A DNA stretch of 64,000 bases, taken from sequence record NC_028894.1; one strand, 5' to 3'. A program made the position numbers and the translations under genes. This DNA is from Escherichia phage vB_EcoM_VR20. A model generated the notes under the pieces. It was not told where the DNA came from, searched no databases, and saw only the letters and a program-made list of their open reading frames with translations. The number at the start of each line of letters is the position of its first letter. The stretch's first letter is position 1. Below, one piece after another: positions 2,864 to 50,988 of this stretch.

Positions 2864-2893
2864 ATTATGCCTTAAAGCAGGGGGCTTGTATAC
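2864..2893 (-). promoter_or_regulatory. T4-type early promoter (cassette copy A): -35 GTATAC, -10 CATAAT
   Basis: Minus-strand reading GTATAC-18 nt-CATAAT, followed by the conserved leader ACTGAGTTACCAAATAAAACACTGGAGAATAAA and ATG at 2822. Confidence 0.55.
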
Positions 2894-2904
2894 CCCCTTT
2901 TTAA

Positions 2905-3348
2905 TTAAATTTCAAATTCTTTGCGGAAGTTGGAAGCATAAGACTGAACTGATGCTTTGTTGAATCCAAACTCACGCACAATCATATCAATAACAGCTCT
3001 GCGAGCAGCACCGTTAGACATATTAACAGTTCTGAACATATCATAGCATAAATCTTTGTTGCTCATACCGGAGCGTTTAGGTGCCTTACGTTCAGCTTTT
3101 GGTTCAGCTTTAGGAGTAGGTTTAACTTCTGGTTTAACCTGTCCATCATTCAGACCTTTAAAAATTTTACCTGCCAGAGTTGCCAGTTTAGCAGCTTCGC
3201 CACGAGTGATACCAAATACTGCCGGGTTAAATGAAATACCTTCAGCTGTCAGACGTTTGAAGAACATACGTGCTGCGGATTGTGCTTCAGCTTCAGAAGA
3301 GTTGTTTAATGCCAGTTTAACATACTTAACCAGTTTTGAAGTTTTCAT
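2905..3348 (-). CDS. hypothetical early protein with C-terminal module shared with 3801..4226
   Basis: ATG at 3348; C-terminal ...NGAARRAVIDMIVREFGFNKASVQSYASNFRK matches ...NAARRALIDVLVTTHDIKKTVVQSYASNFRK of the neighbouring gene. Confidence 0.6.
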   Translation of the reverse strand: MKTSKLVKYVKLALNNSSEAEAQSAARMFFKRLTAEGISFNPAVFGITRGEAAKLATLAGKIFKGLNDGQVKPEVKPTPKAEPKAERKAPKRSGMSNKDLCYDMFRTVNMSNGAARRAVIDMIVREFGFNKASVQSYASNFRKEFEI

Positions 3349-3390
3349 TTTATTATCCCGTTTGTTTATTTGGTAACTCAGTATGGAATC

Positions 3391-3420
3391 ATTATGCCTT
3401 AGTTAAATTCCAAAGTACAT
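3391..3420 (-). promoter_or_regulatory. T4-type early promoter (cassette copy B)
   Basis: Minus-strand ATGTAC-18 nt-CATAAT; core GGTAACTCAGTATGGAATCATTATGCC (plus 3372..3398) is identical to copy A. Confidence 0.5.
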
Positions 3421-3421
3421 A

Positions 3422-3718
3422 TTAATTTTCAGAAGTTGGGAAATAAACTTCAAAGTCATACATGTTTACTACTGCAGTCGCGATTGCTTGGTACTGCATA
3501 CCCAAGAAAGTTTTCTTGTTCTTACGCCACAAGTTAACCATTTCTGTTTTGATGCATGCCAGGGAGTAGTTGGATGCAGGATACTGTTTGATGATTGCAA
3601 CAACTTCTTCAGAAGCAGTTTCGCACAATTCATTCAGTTGAGCTTCAATTTTAGCAGAAATGATTGCTTTGTTTTCTTCTTGAGCTTGGGTAGCGTGCCA
3701 TGCAGGTGCGTTGAACAT
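3422..3718 (-). CDS. hypothetical early protein
   Basis: ATG at 3718 preceded by AAACACTGGAGAATAAA leader and promoter copy C. Confidence 0.5.
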   Translation of the reverse strand: MFNAPAWHATQAQEENKAIISAKIEAQLNELCETASEEVVAIIKQYPASNYSLACIKTEMVNLWRKNKKTFLGMQYQAIATAVVNMYDFEVYFPTSEN

Positions 3719-4367: not shown

Positions 4368-4922
4368 TTAGTTCTTATAAAAGCGGAACGGATTTATATG
4401 AAAGGCGAGCATAGCCTTAGGGATGGGTCGGGACAGAAGGCTCTTGAGCTTCCAGCCACAATAAACACGCAGATAAAAGGTGATTCCACCGACCTTAAGA
4501 TAAGGAACAGAAGCAAAAACACCCCAGGCGTTGTCCGTCCACATCCAGAGCCATCCATGATGAGCTTTATCCGGGGAACCAGATTCGACATCAGGATTAC
4601 CTTTATAATGGAATTCTGAATTGCAATCACGACCGAGCTTGTGGTAAGCAAAATTGTATGCTTTGTTTCGCCAGAGCCAGGCTACTCGTTGGAAGTAAAC
4701 ACCTAACGGCCATTTTCTGATTTTTTCCCAGCGTTTAACATGACCACGGTCACCATCAATTGGATTATCGTATGTCATCATCCAGTCAAATCCGAACGGA
4801 AGCTTACCAGTCTTTTTGTTATGGAACGGCACTACAAATGGTGCAAGGATAACAGCCAGAATCATTGAAATGAAATCCAGTGGCACTAACAGAATCCAGC
4901 TTAGATATTTTAAAAGTTTCAT
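4368..4922 (-). CDS. membrane-anchored protein, Trp/aromatic-rich, unknown function
   Basis: ATG at 4922; N-terminal hydrophobic helix (LSWILLVPLDFISMILAVILAPFVV); terminator hairpins on both flanks. Confidence 0.55.
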   Translation of the reverse strand: MKLLKYLSWILLVPLDFISMILAVILAPFVVPFHNKKTGKLPFGFDWMMTYDNPIDGDRGHVKRWEKIRKWPLGVYFQRVAWLWRNKAYNFAYHKLGRDCNSEFHYKGNPDVESGSPDKAHHGWLWMWTDNAWGVFASVPYLKVGGITFYLRVYCGWKLKSLLSRPIPKAMLAFHINPFRFYKN

Positions 4923-4954
4923 AAATTTCCTTAGTTATGGGTACGTTATATTTA

Positions 4955-4984
4955 TAAAAAAGCCCCAACCTTTCGGAAGGGGCT
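4955..4984 (-). terminator. intrinsic terminator (minus strand)
   Basis: Hairpin AGCCCC...GGGGCT with inner CC-UUUC-GG, followed on the minus strand by a U-run (plus AAAAAA 4955..4960). Confidence 0.55.
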
Positions 4985-5032
4985 AAGCCTTGCGGCAACC
5001 TTGTCGGGGTTCCACCTGCTAGGCAAGTGTTC

Positions 5033-5416
5033 TTATCCGCGTGCGAATGCCATTGCAGCGCGTTCGTTGGCACGGTCAGTGATGTTCAAGAATTTATCAC
5101 GAGCGATTTCGATTGGAGCACCAACCCAGTCAGCAGCACCATTACCTGGGGACTGTTTAGGACGAACCATATAAGTTGAAACTTTGGAACCAGCTAGTTT
5201 AGCACCAGGTGCAGCGGCATTCTTAACGTCTTTAGCTTTGATACCAAAACCAGTTACGATGCCCCAAGAAACACCATTAACTGGTTTCTTGAACATAACA
5301 CGGTCGCCAATTGAAACACCCGCTTTTTCTGGAGCTACTAAAGAAAATTTACCGGCTTCAGTCAGCACGGATTCGGTGATGGTATTGCGATTTAAAAATT
5401 CTGCATATGTAAGCAT
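5033..5416 (-). CDS. hypothetical protein
   Basis: ATG at 5416, 127 aa; weak RBS; terminator downstream. Confidence 0.45.
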   Translation of the reverse strand: MLTYAEFLNRNTITESVLTEAGKFSLVAPEKAGVSIGDRVMFKKPVNGVSWGIVTGFGIKAKDVKNAAAPGAKLAGSKVSTYMVRPKQSPGNGAADWVGAPIEIARDKFLNITDRANERAAMAFARG

Positions 5417-5653
5417 TTTGTTTTTCCATTATTAGGGTTGTTGTTAATATTTATATTCCATAGTACCGGATGCACCATCCGCTCGGATTTCTCATACTAC
5501 CGGGCGCACCGCCCGCTCTGGAAAAACTCCATAAAAAGGTGCGCCGTTTCTGCTGTGATATAAGGGGACATCAACAAATCGTAAAGATTTATTAATGTCA
5601 GTCCTTAAACAGGGAACATCAGTCCGACGACTTACCGGTAGCGACCCGGTTTC

Positions 5654-5893
5654 TCATTCAATTGTAATAGCTAATTTGACTTTAACAACCTTATAATTGG
5701 AATCAAGGTCATTGAATTCCATAAAATTTGTTGCTAATCTGCGAGTCGGGAAACTTAGATATTTATTATGAGCCGGAGGAGCGGTTAATGCAAACCATGG
5801 GACTTGTTTATCATTTGCATCGAACTCGTCAAAACTATAAACCAGCTCGTTGTTGGTTATATCCATAACCGCATAGGATTCGTTAATAACCAT
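5654..5893 (-). CDS. hypothetical protein
   Basis: ATG at 5893 with GAGGA RBS, immediately downstream (minus strand) of the tRNA pair. Confidence 0.45.
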   Translation of the reverse strand: MVINESYAVMDITNNELVYSFDEFDANDKQVPWFALTAPPAHNKYLSFPTRRLATNFMEFNDLDSNYKVVKVKLAITIE

Positions 5894-5910
5894 ATAATAT
5901 CCTCAGTAAT

Positions 5911-5987
5911 TGGTCGGGGTGGTGGGATTCTAACCCACAACCTACGGTTTAGAAGACCGTTGCTCTATACAATTGAGCTACACCCCG
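5911..5987 (-). tRNA. tRNA-Arg (anticodon TCT), CCA encoded
   Basis: Minus-strand sequence folds as a cloverleaf: acceptor CGGGGTG/CACCCCG, D-arm GCTC/GAGC, anticodon stem ACGGT/ACCGT with loop CTTCTAA, T-arm GTGGG-TTAGAAT-CCCAC, 3' ACCA. Confidence 0.8.
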
Positions 5988-5989
5988 AG

Positions 5990-6063
5990 TGGCCCCATCC
6001 GGACTTGAACCGGAAACCTGCCAGTTATGAGCCGGATGCTCTAACCAATTGAGCTACAGGGCC
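5990..6063 (-). tRNA. tRNA with anticodon CAT (Met or Ile2-type)
   Basis: Minus strand: acceptor GGCCCTG/TGGGGCC (two GU pairs), D-arm GCTC/GAGC, anticodon loop CTCATAA, T-arm TCCGG-TTCAAGT-CCGGA, discriminator A. Confidence 0.75.
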
Positions 6064-6068
6064 TAAAA

Positions 6069-6335
6069 TTAAATTACAAATCCAGCGGGAGCATTATCAT
6101 CTTTTGCCATGTGCTGAATTGTATGATAAGTCATTTCTTCAGGAGCAACCAGATAAGCCGCAACGTTAACTAGTGGAATTATTTTTGGTTTAGCGAATGT
6201 GCTATCGGCAATTGCCATAAAGGACTCGCCGTCGGTCTCAACTTCGCCAAATTGACATTCATATGAAATAGAACAACGTTTGGTAGTTGTTGTCTTGGTT
6301 TCCGGGTCATAAAAAGCTAATTTTAATACTAACAT
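6069..6335 (-). CDS. hypothetical protein
   Basis: ATG at 6335 with GAGGTG RBS; the track start at 6341 is GTG. Confidence 0.45.
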   Translation of the reverse strand: MLVLKLAFYDPETKTTTTKRCSISYECQFGEVETDGESFMAIADSTFAKPKIIPLVNVAAYLVAPEEMTYHTIQHMAKDDNAPAGFVI

Positions 6336-47963: not shown

Positions 47964-47981
47964 GATGAACCTCGGTTAGTG

Positions 47982-47989
47982 TATAAATA
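47982..47989 (+). promoter_or_regulatory. late promoter TATAAATA (uvsW)
   Basis: Exact TATAAATA 29 nt upstream of the uvsW ATG. Confidence 0.65.
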
Positions 47990-48017
47990 TAGATATATTT
48001 ATTACCTTGGAATCATC

Positions 48018-49517
48018 ATGGATATTAAAATCAACTTTCTAAATTTTAGTCACGTGCATGTTGAATGTGAAGATGGAATCTTCTACGAACTCCGTGATTA
48101 CTTCAGCTTCGAAGCTGAAAACTATCGCTTCAATCCAAAGTTCAAGCAGGGAGTTTGGGACGGACGAATCCGCCTCCTGGATTACAATCGTAAATTACCA
48201 TACGGTTTGGTTAATCAAATTAAAAAGTTCGCTGACCAGTTTGGTTATTCATTCTGGATTGACCCGCAAATCACCGAGAAAGAAGAAATCTCTCGCGAAG
48301 AATTCGACAAATGGGTCGAGTCAAAAGAAATCTATTCAGGCAATACCAAGATAACGCCCCATTGGTATCAATCTGACGCCGTATATGATGGTCTGGTCAA
48401 CAGAAGAAAGATTCTGAACTTACCTACGTCTGCGGGTAAAAGCCTCATCCAGGCGCTTCTGGCGCGATATTATCTCGAGAACTATGAAGGCAAGGTTCTT
48501 ATCCTTGTTCCTACAACTGCCCTTGTCGACCAGATGATTAATGACTTTGTTGATTATCGGCTTTTCCCTCGTGCAGCTTGTCTGGGTATTCGTTCCGGGA
48601 CTAAACGCGATTCTGATGCGATGATTTATGTATCGACTTATCAGACGGCTGTAAAACAACCTAAAGAATGGTTTGAACAGTTTGGCCAGTTTATGAATGA
48701 CGAATGCCACATGGCTACAGGTAAATCGATTTCGACGGTTATCGAAGGCCTTACGAATTGCATGTTTAAATTTGGTTTGTCAGGTTCACTCCGTGATGGC
48801 AAAGCCAACCTTATGCAATATATGGGTCTGTTTGGTGATATCTTTAAACCAGTATCAACATCTAAATTAATGGAAGATGGCCAGGTTACTGACCTTAAAA
48901 TAAATAGTATTTTCCTTCGTTACCCTGACGAATTCACCGTTAAAATGAAAGGTAAAACTTATCAGGATGAAATCAAGGTAATTACAAAAGCTACACGCAG
49001 AAATAAATGGGTAACAAACCTTGCACTCAAGCTTTCTAAAAAAGATGAAAACGTCTTTTTGATGTTTAAGAATATCGAGCATGGTAAATCGATGTTTGAA
49101 ATGATTAAAGAAGCTGGTCATGAGAAAGTGTATTATGTTTCCGGGGAAGTTGATACCGAAACCCGTAATGCTCTGAAGGTCATGGCAGAGAATGGAAAGG
49201 GAATTATTGTTGTAGCTTCATATGGTGTATTCTCAACGGGGATTTCCGTTAAAAACCTCCATCATATTATTTTCGCTCACCCGGTCAAGTCAAAGGTAAT
49301 TGTACTCCAGACAATTGGCCGCGTGCTTCGAAAACATGAATCCAAATCGACCGCAAACGTGTGGGACATTGTGGATGATATGGGGGTCAAACCCAAATCA
49401 GCAAACGCTAAAAAGAAATATGTTCATATTAACTTTGCGCTTAAACATGCACTAGAACGTATTCAGCGGTATGCAGACGAAAAATTCAATTATGTAATTA
49501 AACAGGTGGAAATATAA
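48018..49517 (+). CDS. uvsW: UvsW, recombination/repair helicase
   Basis: ATG at 48018 (MDIKINF...), downstream of the late promoter; helicase motifs (NLPTSAGKS, DECH, QTIGRVLR). Confidence 0.93.
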   Translation: MDIKINFLNFSHVHVECEDGIFYELRDYFSFEAENYRFNPKFKQGVWDGRIRLLDYNRKLPYGLVNQIKKFADQFGYSFWIDPQITEKEEISREEFDKWVESKEIYSGNTKITPHWYQSDAVYDGLVNRRKILNLPTSAGKSLIQALLARYYLENYEGKVLILVPTTALVDQMINDFVDYRLFPRAACLGIRSGTKRDSDAMIYVSTYQTAVKQPKEWFEQFGQFMNDECHMATGKSISTVIEGLTNCMFKFGLSGSLRDGKANLMQYMGLFGDIFKPVSTSKLMEDGQVTDLKINSIFLRYPDEFTVKMKGKTYQDEIKVITKATRRNKWVTNLALKLSKKDENVFLMFKNIEHGKSMFEMIKEAGHEKVYYVSGEVDTETRNALKVMAENGKGIIVVASYGVFSTGISVKNLHHIIFAHPVKSKVIVLQTIGRVLRKHESKSTANVWDIVDDMGVKPKSANAKKKYVHINFALKHALERIQRYADEKFNYVIKQVEI

Positions 49518-49744
49518 TGAAATCCTTCGAAGAAATTATGTACGAAGCATCAATTGAAGGCTTTATGGCTAAGATTGGTTCCTGTCAGACCATGGACGGT
49601 CTGAAGGAGTTGGAAGGCTATTATAAGAAACGCAGCAAAGAAGCTGAACTGAAAGATTCCGATGATATCAGTGTTCGCGATGCTCTTGCCGGTAAACGCG
49701 CCGAGCTTGAGGATATGGACGACGAAGAAGACGAAGATTTCTAA
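49517..49744 (+). CDS. uvsW.1: UvsW.1, small acidic protein
   Basis: 75 aa with acidic tail, ATGA overlap with uvsW as in T4. Confidence 0.75.
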   Translation: MKSFEEIMYEASIEGFMAKIGSCQTMDGLKELEGYYKKRSKEAELKDSDDISVRDALAGKRAELEDMDDEEDEDF

Positions 49745-49774
49745 ATAAAAAGGCCCCAACCAAAAGGAAGGGGC
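49743..49774 (-). terminator. intrinsic terminator (minus strand) after the uvsY operon
   Basis: GCCCC...GGGGC hairpin followed on the minus strand by a U-run (plus AAATAAAAA). Confidence 0.55.
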
Positions 49775-49801
49775 AAAACCAAAAATGGTTAACAACACTA
49801 G

Positions 49802-49969
49802 CTAAATTAAAAGTTGGGTCTCGTTCAGTTGCTCTTCTGTATTTTCCGTAACTGGCAAACTCTGAACATAATTATAACAGGCGCCCGGATGCACCGGACC
49901 TTGGTCTGTATCCACAACCAATGCAGAATCGATTGGAGTTTTACAGACAACACAAATCTTATCTGACAT
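49802..49969 (-). CDS. small Cys-containing protein (55 aa), uvsY.-2-like by position
   Basis: Hand translation: MSDKICVVCKTPIDSALVVDTDQGPVHPGACYNYVQSLPVTENTEEQLNETQLLI; GAGGAG RBS; below the ORF-track length cutoff. Confidence 0.5.
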   Translation of the reverse strand: MSDKICVVCKTPIDSALVVDTDQGPVHPGACYNYVQSLPVTENTEEQLNETQLLI

Positions 49970-49997
49970 GATTGTCTCCTCAGTTAAACTTACATAT

Positions 49998-50111
49998 CTA
50001 TTTAGTGCTCTTCATAATAGCAGCACGAGCTTTCATCTCGTTAACAATTTCAGTTATTCGGTTTGCAGAGATAACCATCTCGTCGAGAATCTTACTAATA
50101 TTCTGTTTCAT
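49998..50111 (-). CDS. small protein (37 aa), uvsY.-1-like by position
   Basis: ATG overlaps the uvsY stop (TGATG); MKQNISKILDEMVISANRITEIVNEMKARAAIMKSTK. Confidence 0.4.
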   Translation of the reverse strand: MKQNISKILDEMVISANRITEIVNEMKARAAIMKSTK

Positions 50112-50545
50112 CATTTACCTGCCTCGAATTGTCTTATTTCTAACATATGTTTAAGTGCGAAACTTCGTGACTTAACACCATCTAATGCAGCGCTACAGAA
50201 GTCCTGGAGCAGTGCCCAATACTGAATTGAAGTATCAATCTTCAACACGCTTGAATCTGCGGCCATGACTGTTTTCAATTCTGACTTCTCGTATACATCC
50301 ATGCATACTTCTTCCCCTGGGTCACCCCTTCCCGTATAATGGTCTAGTCGTTTTTTCAGTGCAGTTTTCTTCTGAATCTCAAGACGCATTATTTCTTTCT
50401 TGCAGTTGGTATACAATCTCAACCATTTGCTATGCAACAAAACGTTGTTTTGTGTTTCATATTGAAGTTGTGTACCATCAATTTTTAAATCTGCATCTAA
50501 CTCGTCCTGAAATACTTCTAACTTATATTCAATCTCTTTTTTCAT
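50111..50545 (-). CDS. uvsY: UvsY, recombination mediator protein
   Basis: ATG at 50545 (MKKEIEYK...); KIDGTQLQYE...LHSKWL...C-terminal QYWALLQDFCSAALDGVKSRSFALKHM..FEAGK recognisable as UvsY; the track start lies inside the promoter. Confidence 0.9.
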   Translation of the reverse strand: MKKEIEYKLEVFQDELDADLKIDGTQLQYETQNNVLLHSKWLRLYTNCKKEIMRLEIQKKTALKKRLDHYTGRGDPGEEVCMDVYEKSELKTVMAADSSVLKIDTSIQYWALLQDFCSAALDGVKSRSFALKHMLEIRQFEAGK

Positions 50546-50556
50546 AATGTATCCAA

Positions 50557-50580
50557 TGTAAGGGTCTAGAACCATTATAC
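50557..50580 (-). promoter_or_regulatory. early/middle promoter -10 element (TGTATAATGG) for uvsY
   Basis: Minus-strand GGCTGTATAATGGTTCTAGACCC; the motif GGTCTAGAACCATTATAC recurs at 45535. Confidence 0.45.
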
Positions 50581-50598
50581 AGCCATAAAATTAAAGCA

Positions 50599-50988
50599 TT
50601 AACCGTTTTGACTTAGCTGAATCCTGATTTGTTCGAGGGTATCAGGGTCATCAACAATGCTGAACTGAACCGTTACGATAATGGAGTTATCATCATACAT
50701 AGGGACAACTGCAACCTGTAGATTGCTTATCCTTGGTTCGAAGTTCCGCACCGCGGAGACGATGTTGCGTTTAATGGTATCTGTGATTAATGGAGTGATA
50801 TTCTCAAAAAGCTGATTACTTATATCACATCCAAATTCAGGCATAAAAGGCCTTGACCCTTTTCTTGTGGTGATTATTCCCAGAAGACTGTTCTTAACAG
50901 ACCTTGCACCGGTTACTTTAGCAACGTCTTTATCCCAACTCATTGACAAGTCAGGAGACACATCGCTATACATTTTGTTTATATTCAT
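50599..50988 (-). CDS. 25: gp25, baseplate wedge protein
   Basis: 129 aa; LLGIITTRKGSRPF.PEFGCD motif of gp25/gpW. Confidence 0.92.
   Translation of the reverse strand: MNINKMYSDVSPDLSMSWDKDVAKVTGARSVKNSLLGIITTRKGSRPFMPEFGCDISNQLFENITPLITDTIKRNIVSAVRNFEPRISNLQVAVVPMYDDNSIIVTVQFSIVDDPDTLEQIRIQLSQNG

Follow-up and report, generated by a model that had tools for sequence, protein, structure and literature searches.

Comparative analysis of the uvsY locus of a Gaprivervirus points to an orthologue of uvsY.-2 and to a predicted micro-protein gene distinct from uvsY.-1

Introduction

In bacteriophage T4, the gene of the recombination mediator UvsY is followed by two small genes, uvsY.-1 and uvsY.-2, and Nolan et al. 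(2006; PMC1524935) described a conserved terminator that lies downstream of uvsW.1, between the two transcripts that converge there. A CRISPRi-ART screen of T4 (PMC11879866) rated uvsY.-2 as "Semi-Fit" and uvsY.-1, uvsY and uvsW as "Not Fit". The uvsY.-2 result was validated in plaque assays with single guides and could be complemented in trans, and the authors considered the gene important to infection by T4. T4 depends on uvsY.-2 to reach its full plaque size and plating efficiency; few other T4 genes whose function is unknown have a fitness effect that has been validated. Here we analyse the corresponding region of Escherichia phage vB_EcoM_VR20 (sequence record NC_028894.1) in a stretch of 64,000 nucleotides, the whole of which is called the window in what follows. 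A previous inspection of its letters (hereafter, the sequence-only reading) had noticed two small open reading frames (ORFs) of 37 and 55 amino acids (aa) on the minus strand downstream of uvsY, and had placed them in the slots of uvsY.-1 and uvsY.-2.

Over positions 49700-50650, the window shares 99.2% identity with Escherichia phage PSD2001 and 96-99% with some 30 further Gaprivervirus genomes; judged by these relatives, the window phage is a Gaprivervirus (JS98/SP18-like, Tevenvirinae, T-even).

Results

Coding status of the two small ORFs

The 55-aa ORF runs on the minus strand from the ATG at 49969-49967 to the TAG at 49804-49802 and is preceded by a GAGGAG motif at 49981-49976. The smaller ORF ends with the TAG at 50000-49998 and has two adjacent ATG codons. 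The one at 50114-50112 gives a 38-aa product and overlaps the TGA of uvsY as ATGA, while the one at 50111-50109, which was chosen in the sequence-only reading, gives a 37-aa product and overlaps the same stop as TGATG. The 37-aa form appears slightly favoured, because the homologues start with MK(N/E/Q)NISK. The positions of both ORFs, the overlap of the 37-aa ORF with the uvsY stop and the GAGGAG ribosome-binding site, as described in that reading, all proved correct.

The ratio of non-synonymous to synonymous differences per site (pN/pS) was calculated by comparing the window with SP18, VR26, LH2 (a Tequatrovirus), two Dhakaviruses and T4 (6-7 phages from three genera). The small ORF gave a pN/pS of 0.176 in the proposed frame, as compared to 0.89-1.40 for the two other sense frames (0.98 and 1.40 in a second calculation) and to 0.82, 0.32 (a shadow frame) and 4.81 in the antisense frames. 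For the 55-aa ORF, the values were 0.160 in the proposed frame and 0.98 and 3.06 in the shifted sense frames. Variable sites fall mostly in third codon positions (9/4/19 at first, second and third positions of the small ORF; 14/2/27 in the 55-aa ORF), and between the window and LH2 the small ORF differs at 16 of about 20.5 synonymous sites versus 5 of 81.5 non-synonymous sites. All seven homologues of the peptide sampled outside the T-even phages have an open sense frame, and most have a clear Shine-Dalgarno motif upstream. Stops break all three antisense frames in five of the seven; M01, and RAH1 with its prophage twin, retain one open antisense frame. PSD2001 already annotates both small ORFs as coding sequences (CDSs). 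From the pN/pS values, the codon-position pattern and the open sense frames, both ORFs are therefore protein-coding genes, under purifying selection in the proposed frames only. This agrees with the expectation that both are real genes whose reading frames would be conserved in related phages.

Alternatively, the small ORF might have arisen by chance, or be what remained when uvsY.-1 was deleted, and yield no functional product. It is in fact very short, its copies are unannotated in the records of SP18, VR26, VR5 and ECML-359, and one antisense frame is open in the window with the rather low pN/pS reported above. Nevertheless, the sense frame has the lowest ratio of all (0.18), the comparison with LH2 shows changes concentrated at synonymous sites, and homologues of the same length persist at only about 48-60% DNA identity in the gene, with the sense frame always open, a clear ribosome-binding site in most cases and the antisense frames mostly closed. 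We consider a chance ORF or a deletion scar extremely unlikely.

Two plus-strand ORFs of 85 aa (49968-50225) and 60 aa (49972-50154), antisense to the small genes and to the end of uvsY, are open in the T-even copies. They were rejected as genes and taken as shadows, because five of the seven homologues sampled elsewhere have stops in all three antisense frames. A structured RNA was also dropped as an explanation: an Rfam scan of the region gave only a chance-level match to GA-cis (18.3 bits against a cut-off of 34.7).

The smaller ORF is not uvsY.-1

The identification of the 37-aa ORF with UvsY.-1 does not hold. What speaks for a shortened UvsY.-1 orthologue is position alone: the ORF directly follows uvsY and overlaps its stop, like uvsY.-1 in T4 and SP18. 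With respect to the window, SP18 and RZ contain about 231 extra bases, which encode, right after uvsY, a 77-aa protein with an annotated similarity to T4 UvsY.-1. In both genomes uvsY.-1 is followed by a separate 36-aa ORF (MKNISKILDEMV...), and it is this ORF that truly corresponds to the window ORF; VR26 has the same arrangement. The coexistence of the 77-aa UvsY.-1 and of a separate 36-aa copy in SP18, RZ and VR26 refutes orthology. Moreover, the two proteins have no similarity, since a BLASTP comparison of the 38-aa ORF with SP18 UvsY.-1 gave no alignment at E <= 100, and T4 has UvsY.-1 only, 26 bp from UvsY.-2 and with no copy of the peptide ORF. We therefore give the shortened-orthologue explanation virtually no chance: the small ORF is not UvsY.-1, and the window lacks uvsY.-1.

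The peptide gene occurs without uvsY.-1 in the window, PSD2001, P896, CJ20, Tequatrovirus LH2 and the Dhakaviruses, while neither gene is present in the Aeromonas phages examined. The two genes do not behave as alternative occupants of one orthologous slot, with one gene per genome. This differing gene content across phages indicates that the slot between uvsY and uvsY.-2 is polymorphic and has four states: empty, uvsY.-1, peptide, and both. As a side observation, the 36-aa gene between uvsY.-1 and uvsY.-2 is intact in all four of the records mentioned above in which it is unannotated.

A micro-protein family across phage groups

When the window peptide was used as a query in tblastn, weak matches were obtained whose positions coincide exactly with annotated CDSs of 38 and 40 aa in M01 (Guernseyvirinae) and RAH1 (a Klebsiella siphovirus). 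A hidden Markov model (HMM) built from five T-even copies scored M01 and RAH1 at 32.3 and 27.9 bits, respectively, as compared to 12.7 bits or less for 1000 shuffles. Profile searches, carried out with family alignments led by a 40-aa member, gave E values from 1e-18 to 1e-6 for at least 40 members. The family comprises 43 members, all of 36-51 aa and all stand-alone, none of them fused and none bearing a functional name, and no Pfam domain was found in any of the 43. The PHROG matches of the window peptide itself are weak (phrog_7002, E 0.006; phrog_34792, E 0.11).

Among T-even phages, the carriers are Gaprivervirus, Dhakavirus and one Tequatrovirus; the others are Guernseyvirinae, lambdoid and enterobacterial prophages, the 109-kb phage Eos and the 146-kb Klebsiella phage DP. 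The carriers also include Klebsiella, Pantoea, Kosakonia and Rosenbergiella genomes, and one member was found on 221 contigs. Five positions are invariant (M13, A17, R19, I23 and E26). AlphaFold2 predicts a single helix spanning residues 2-36, with a predicted local distance difference test (pLDDT) score of 92.7, and hydrophobic residues follow a heptad a/d pattern (L10, M13, A17, I20, V24, M27, A31 and M34).

The genomic context of the peptide varies. In Klebsiella prophages it lies in a pL-like early operon, in the order repressor, 39-aa gene, 125-aa gene, peptide, KilR, GamL, RecT, YqaJ and integrase; on Guernseyvirinae-like contigs it lies between the lysozyme and terminase genes, and in large phages among small early genes. 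In enterobacterial prophages and in RAH1, the 40-aa member always comes after the same uncharacterised 125-aa gene. This pair, at 5599-6123 in four loci and at 1090-1614 and 4598-5123 in two others, occurs in both lambdoid and Mu-like prophage contexts, the 125-aa partner is absent from the T-even phages, and the two products may act together. The pL-operon context in the Klebsiella prophages prompted a comparison with lambda and P22. Kinship to the pL-operon proteins CIII, Kil, Ral and Arf was rejected, all of them scoring 0.6 bits or less with the family HMM, and none of the ORFs of the lambda 27-38.5 kb region or of the whole P22 genome exceeded 5.6 bits.

Another candidate role for the micro-protein is to imitate the helix by which H-NS oligomerises at its N-terminus, and so to antagonise the H-NS of the host like truncated H-NS-like antagonists do. 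Five non-T-even members match Pfam Histone_HNS_N, all in one register (profile positions 18-55), with 14-17 bits and a best E value of 0.0045, the peptide has a heptad coiled-coil pattern, and LEEML of E. coli H-NS stands where the peptide has LDEMV. However, all these matches are below the gathering score (the best has 17.3 bits versus 24.5 bits for PF22470), they concern five of 22 members, none of them from a T-even phage, and members match other charged-helix families (HisKA, HisK_sensor) at a similar level. In addition, hhalign of the family against E. coli H-NS aligned five columns with a probability of 0.4%, and a search of the PDB with the family profile returned no H-NS chain at E <= 10. 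Mimicry of the H-NS N-domain is thus not supported, and we judge it very improbable.

The 55-aa gene is assigned to uvsY.-2

The 55-aa ORF matches the Pfam family DUF2685 (PF10886) with 101.7 bits (cut-off 25, E 2.4e-29) over residues 3-54 of 55, matches phrog_1043 with an E value of 2.6e-29 and is about 80% identical to T4 UvsY.-2. By this identity and the full-length match, it is the orthologue of T4 UvsY.-2, as its position in the uvsY.-2 slot had suggested. By tblastn, the DUF2685 family was found in 1188 phage records, from phages of Escherichia, Klebsiella, Acinetobacter, Aeromonas and other hosts.

The sequence-only reading had described two Cys pairs and a possible small zinc-binding protein. 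The protein contains three Cys residues only; what is found is a CxxC motif together with an HxxxC motif (C6-x2-C9 ... H27-x3-C31). The spacing is conserved in homologues: C6, C9, H27 and C31, together with the tail E46-L54 (EQLNETQLL), are invariant in an alignment of 18 sequences that includes a Vibrio phage protein at 47% identity. In a set of 21 sequences, C6, C9 and H27 are again invariant, and C31 is missing from one partial sequence only. The AlphaFold2 model has pLDDT values of 81-89 for residues 1-40 and of about 50 for the tail, consistent with disorder. It shows a CxxC knuckle, a beta-hairpin (residues 19-21 and 24-26) and a helix (30-37) that begins near H27 and C31, and is compatible with a small zinc-binding domain. 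A Foldseek search against viral models retrieved only uncharacterised DUF2685 proteins from other T4-like phages and, after these, RING, TRASH and zinc-finger folds. A sequence search of the PDB with DUF2685 found no solved relative, the sole match being the Mdm2 RING (E 1.4). On the strength of the model, a treble-clef-like zinc knuckle is most likely for residues 1-40, which would bind one zinc through C6, C9, H27 and C31.

If the Cys and His residues did not bind metal, they might serve, for example, a structural disulfide or a catalytic role. The model argues against this, since the four residues occupy the positions of a treble-clef zinc site (knuckle 6-9, H27 past the second strand, C31 in the first turn of the helix), a placement read from the secondary-structure string and not from coordinates. 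They are invariant even at 47% identity, and almost all the structural neighbours are zinc fingers. A disulfide is itself unlikely in the reducing cytoplasm, which counts against the structural variant. We find a metal-free role decidedly unlikely and retain the zinc knuckle as the preferred description.

Genomic position of uvsY.-2 and its relation to recombination

In T4, SP18, LH2, Dhakavirus and Aeromonas phages, uvsY.-2 lies at the end of the uvsY-side unit and is convergent with uvsW.1 and uvsW. In the Aeromonas phages it comes directly after the gene that occupies the place of uvsY. In two T4-like phages of Aeromonas this gene, at 2026-2499 and 2010-2477 of the respective loci, encodes a protein of 155-157 aa, annotated as "tRNA amidotransferase" in one and as "hypothetical protein" in the other. 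These proteins gave no Pfam UvsY match at E <= 0.01 and only sub-threshold YqeY matches. The gene represents either a highly diverged uvsY or one that took its place.

The constant position facing uvsW.1 and uvsW, from T4 to the Aeromonas phages, and the predicted co-transcription with uvsY would suit a dedicated accessory factor of UvsY/UvsW recombination-repair, as opposed to a factor with a general or host-directed role. Against this assignment, uvsY.-2 is "Semi-Fit" in T4 whereas uvsY and uvsW are "Not Fit", so that its phenotype exceeds theirs under the conditions of the screen, and in Acinetobacter phage ZZ1 uvsY.-2 is not next to uvsY: it comes after gp25, with extra small genes before uvsW. 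A dedicated role in this pathway is a candidate, although we hold it to be doubtful.

Layout of the uvsY operon and neighbouring genes

The minus-strand gene order is gp25, uvsY, the 37/38-aa ORF and the 55-aa ORF, and uvsW and uvsW.1 converge on this unit from the plus strand (Table 1). The uvsY, peptide and uvsY.-2 genes form a three-gene operon, with a predicted middle promoter in front and a conserved terminator at the end.

Table 1. Position of the features of the uvsY region in the window, from the highest coordinate down.
Feature	Position	Strand	Remarks
gp25	50599-50988	-	intact ORF, 129 aa
predicted T4-type middle promoter 5' of uvsY	50574..50598	-	MotA box TGCTTTA 50598-50592, 12-nt spacer, -10 TATAAT 50579-50574
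uvsY, recombination mediator, 144-aa form	50111..50545	-	Pfam UvsY PF11056, 1.6e-50; first gene of operon
predicted micro-protein gene, 38 aa (37 aa from ATG 50111), MMKQNISKILDEMVISANRITEIVNEMKARAAIMKSTK	49998..50114	-	not uvsY.-1
Shine-Dalgarno GAGGAG of 55-aa gene	49976..49981	-	6 nt 5' of ATG
uvsY.-2 orthologue (DUF2685), 55 aa	49802..49969	-	C6xxC9...H27xxxC31 and acidic tail
intrinsic terminator of uvsY operon	49743..49774	-	between converging uvsY.-2 and uvsW.1
uvsW.1	49517..49744	+	Pfam UvsW-1 PF11637, 7.3e-25; stop codon overlaps terminator U-run
uvsW	47979-49517	+	converges on uvsY side

The minus-strand terminator noticed in the sequence-only reading is real and conserved. It consists of a hairpin (GCCCC..GGGGC) at 49774-49753 followed by a C and by UUUUUAUUU (49751-49743), with a folding energy of -19.3 kcal/mol and a z value of -2.5 (RNAfold). 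The features of an intrinsic terminator, that is a 5+2-bp hairpin followed by CUUUUUAUUU, are conserved in relatives. T4, LH2 and Dhakavirus retain the hairpin, and its stem shows compensatory changes: GCCCC/GGGGC becomes GGCCC/GGGCC in T4 and Dhakavirus, where the U-run is preserved. A simple consensus terminator scanner missed this hairpin because of its loop limit of 8 nt; the hairpin that it flagged inside the 55-aa gene was discarded as spurious.

The promoter was read directly from the letters and compared with the T4 uvsY upstream region (TAATGCTTCA...TATAAT), so its middle-promoter function is proposed on the basis of the T4 consensus. In T4, a late-promoter consensus (TATAAATA) overlaps the stop of uvsY.-1 just upstream of uvsY.-2 (T4 locus about 2665-2690). 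The window counterpart (49970-50005) reads CTAAATAG, and no TATAAATA was found on the minus strand of the window between 49700 and 51100. For this reason, late expression of uvsY.-2 may differ between genera. The gene carries its own strong ribosome-binding site, and GAGGAG is also kept in T4, LH2, VR26 and Dhakavirus.

Concerning the start of uvsY, PSD2001 annotates an identical CDS of 435 bp, and SP18 and RZ use a 154-aa start. In this part of the window (50543-50598, minus strand), the ATG of the 154-aa ORF, at 50575, sits inside the -10 element of the middle promoter; for this reason, the 144-aa start at 50545 is more plausible. Upstream, gp25 of PSD2001 is annotated as a truncated CDS of 246 bp (PSD2001 locus 1307-1552) as compared to the intact ORF of the window, which is probably an annotation or sequencing difference in the PSD2001 record. 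On the other side, SP18 has an additional 199-aa ORF between uvsW and uvsW.1 (SP18 locus 2866-3465), annotated as similar to a protein of Paramecium bursaria Chlorella virus FR483. This ORF is absent from the window and from RZ, and its site resembles a second insertion hot-spot of the region.

Discussion

We propose that both small ORFs are the distal genes of the Gaprivervirus uvsY operon, whose transcription would start at the MotA-type middle promoter and stop at the conserved hairpin facing uvsW.1. The peptide gene would be translationally coupled to uvsY through the ATGA/TGATG overlap. Its product would be a single amphipathic alpha-helix, with a heptad hydrophobic seam and the invariant R19 and E26, and would represent an accessory, horizontally mobile micro-protein, gained and lost among nearly identical genomes. 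Since its carriers share Enterobacterales hosts but not the replication and recombination machinery, the peptide might bind a host protein through a helix-helix contact, so as to modulate or inhibit it. In UvsY.-2, the acidic C-terminal tail, which follows the predicted knuckle and is likewise only predicted to be disordered, would dock on a partner protein. Taken as a whole, this explanation (an operon containing uvsY.-2, with a zinc knuckle and a docking tail, and a mobile, host-directed peptide) seems to us quite probable.

Several observations weigh against it. Translation and function of the peptide are predictions in every phage, its hydrophobic moment is only marginally above that of shuffles (7% of the shuffles reach it), and an exhaustive phmmer search in which the 38-aa peptide was the single query did not reach beyond its own cluster. 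No common genomic neighbour was found across the contexts examined, so that no target can be named. As for UvsY.-2, the arrangement in ZZ1 weakens a specific link to UvsY. Moreover, the T4 phenotype is modest, with a pooled-screen p-value of 0.12 before validation (PMC11879866).

A broader joint reading may be formulated, which we put forward as speculative and rather unlikely. According to it, the peptide would be a horizontally mobile effector shared by T4-like, lambdoid, Jersey-like and other large enterobacterial phages against one conserved host protein, which could be, for example, a defence or nucleoid factor, and UvsY.-2 would be a mini zinc-finger adaptor, widespread in T4-like phages, whose invariant tail could dock onto a replication, recombination or host partner. 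If this were true, a single operon would encode two proteins of less than 60 residues, each with its own, so far uncharacterised way of acting between phage and host.

In itself the finding is ordinary, as both genes are already annotated as "hypothetical protein" in relatives and DUF2685 is already a Pfam family, and nothing here overturns current understanding. What is added is that the small ORF is not uvsY.-1, that the slot after uvsY has four states and that a micro-protein crosses phage groups, this last being a modest new point. With regard to annotation, the gene following uvsY in the window phage must not carry the label uvsY.-1. The C2HC site and the invariant tail of UvsY.-2 are concrete targets for mutagenesis, and the presence of the micro-protein in phages of unrelated lifestyles makes it a candidate host-directed peptide.

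Comparison with known systems

The systems closest to the predicted peptide are hypothetical micro-proteins of other phages, such as UIS66064.1 (PSD2001), QPI13303.1 (ABTNLsp5), WKW35337.1 (M01) and XRT76166.1 (RAH1), and PHROGs 34792, 11017 and 7002. They share with it a length of 36-51 aa, a single predicted helix, a stand-alone gene and the core motif LDEM(V/L)xxAxR(I/L)xEIVxEMKAR. They differ in context: the gene comes after uvsY in T-even phages, upstream of Kil/Gam/RecT in Klebsiella prophages and near lysis or terminase genes in Guernseyvirinae. With T4 UvsY.-1 (NP_049798; phrog_1541), the peptide gene shares only the site right after uvsY and the overlap with its stop codon, whereas UvsY.-1 is a protein of 74-77 aa with Cys and His, as compared to the 37/38-aa helix of the window.

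For the 55-aa protein, treble-clef or TRASH-like mini zinc fingers (the eL24 N-domain, YacG, C1, FYVE and zf-HIT) are among the closest known systems, and UvsY.-2 may be likened, by analogy only, to small zinc-finger regulators such as YacG. T4 UvsY.-2 (NP_049797; PF10886; phrog_1043) shares with the window protein its length, the CxxC...HxxxC motif, the EEQLNETQLL tail and the Shine-Dalgarno sequence, as well as the position at the end of the operon, facing uvsW.1 across the conserved terminator. The two loci differ in what lies upstream of uvsY.-2: T4 has uvsY.-1 there, and the window has the micro-protein gene.

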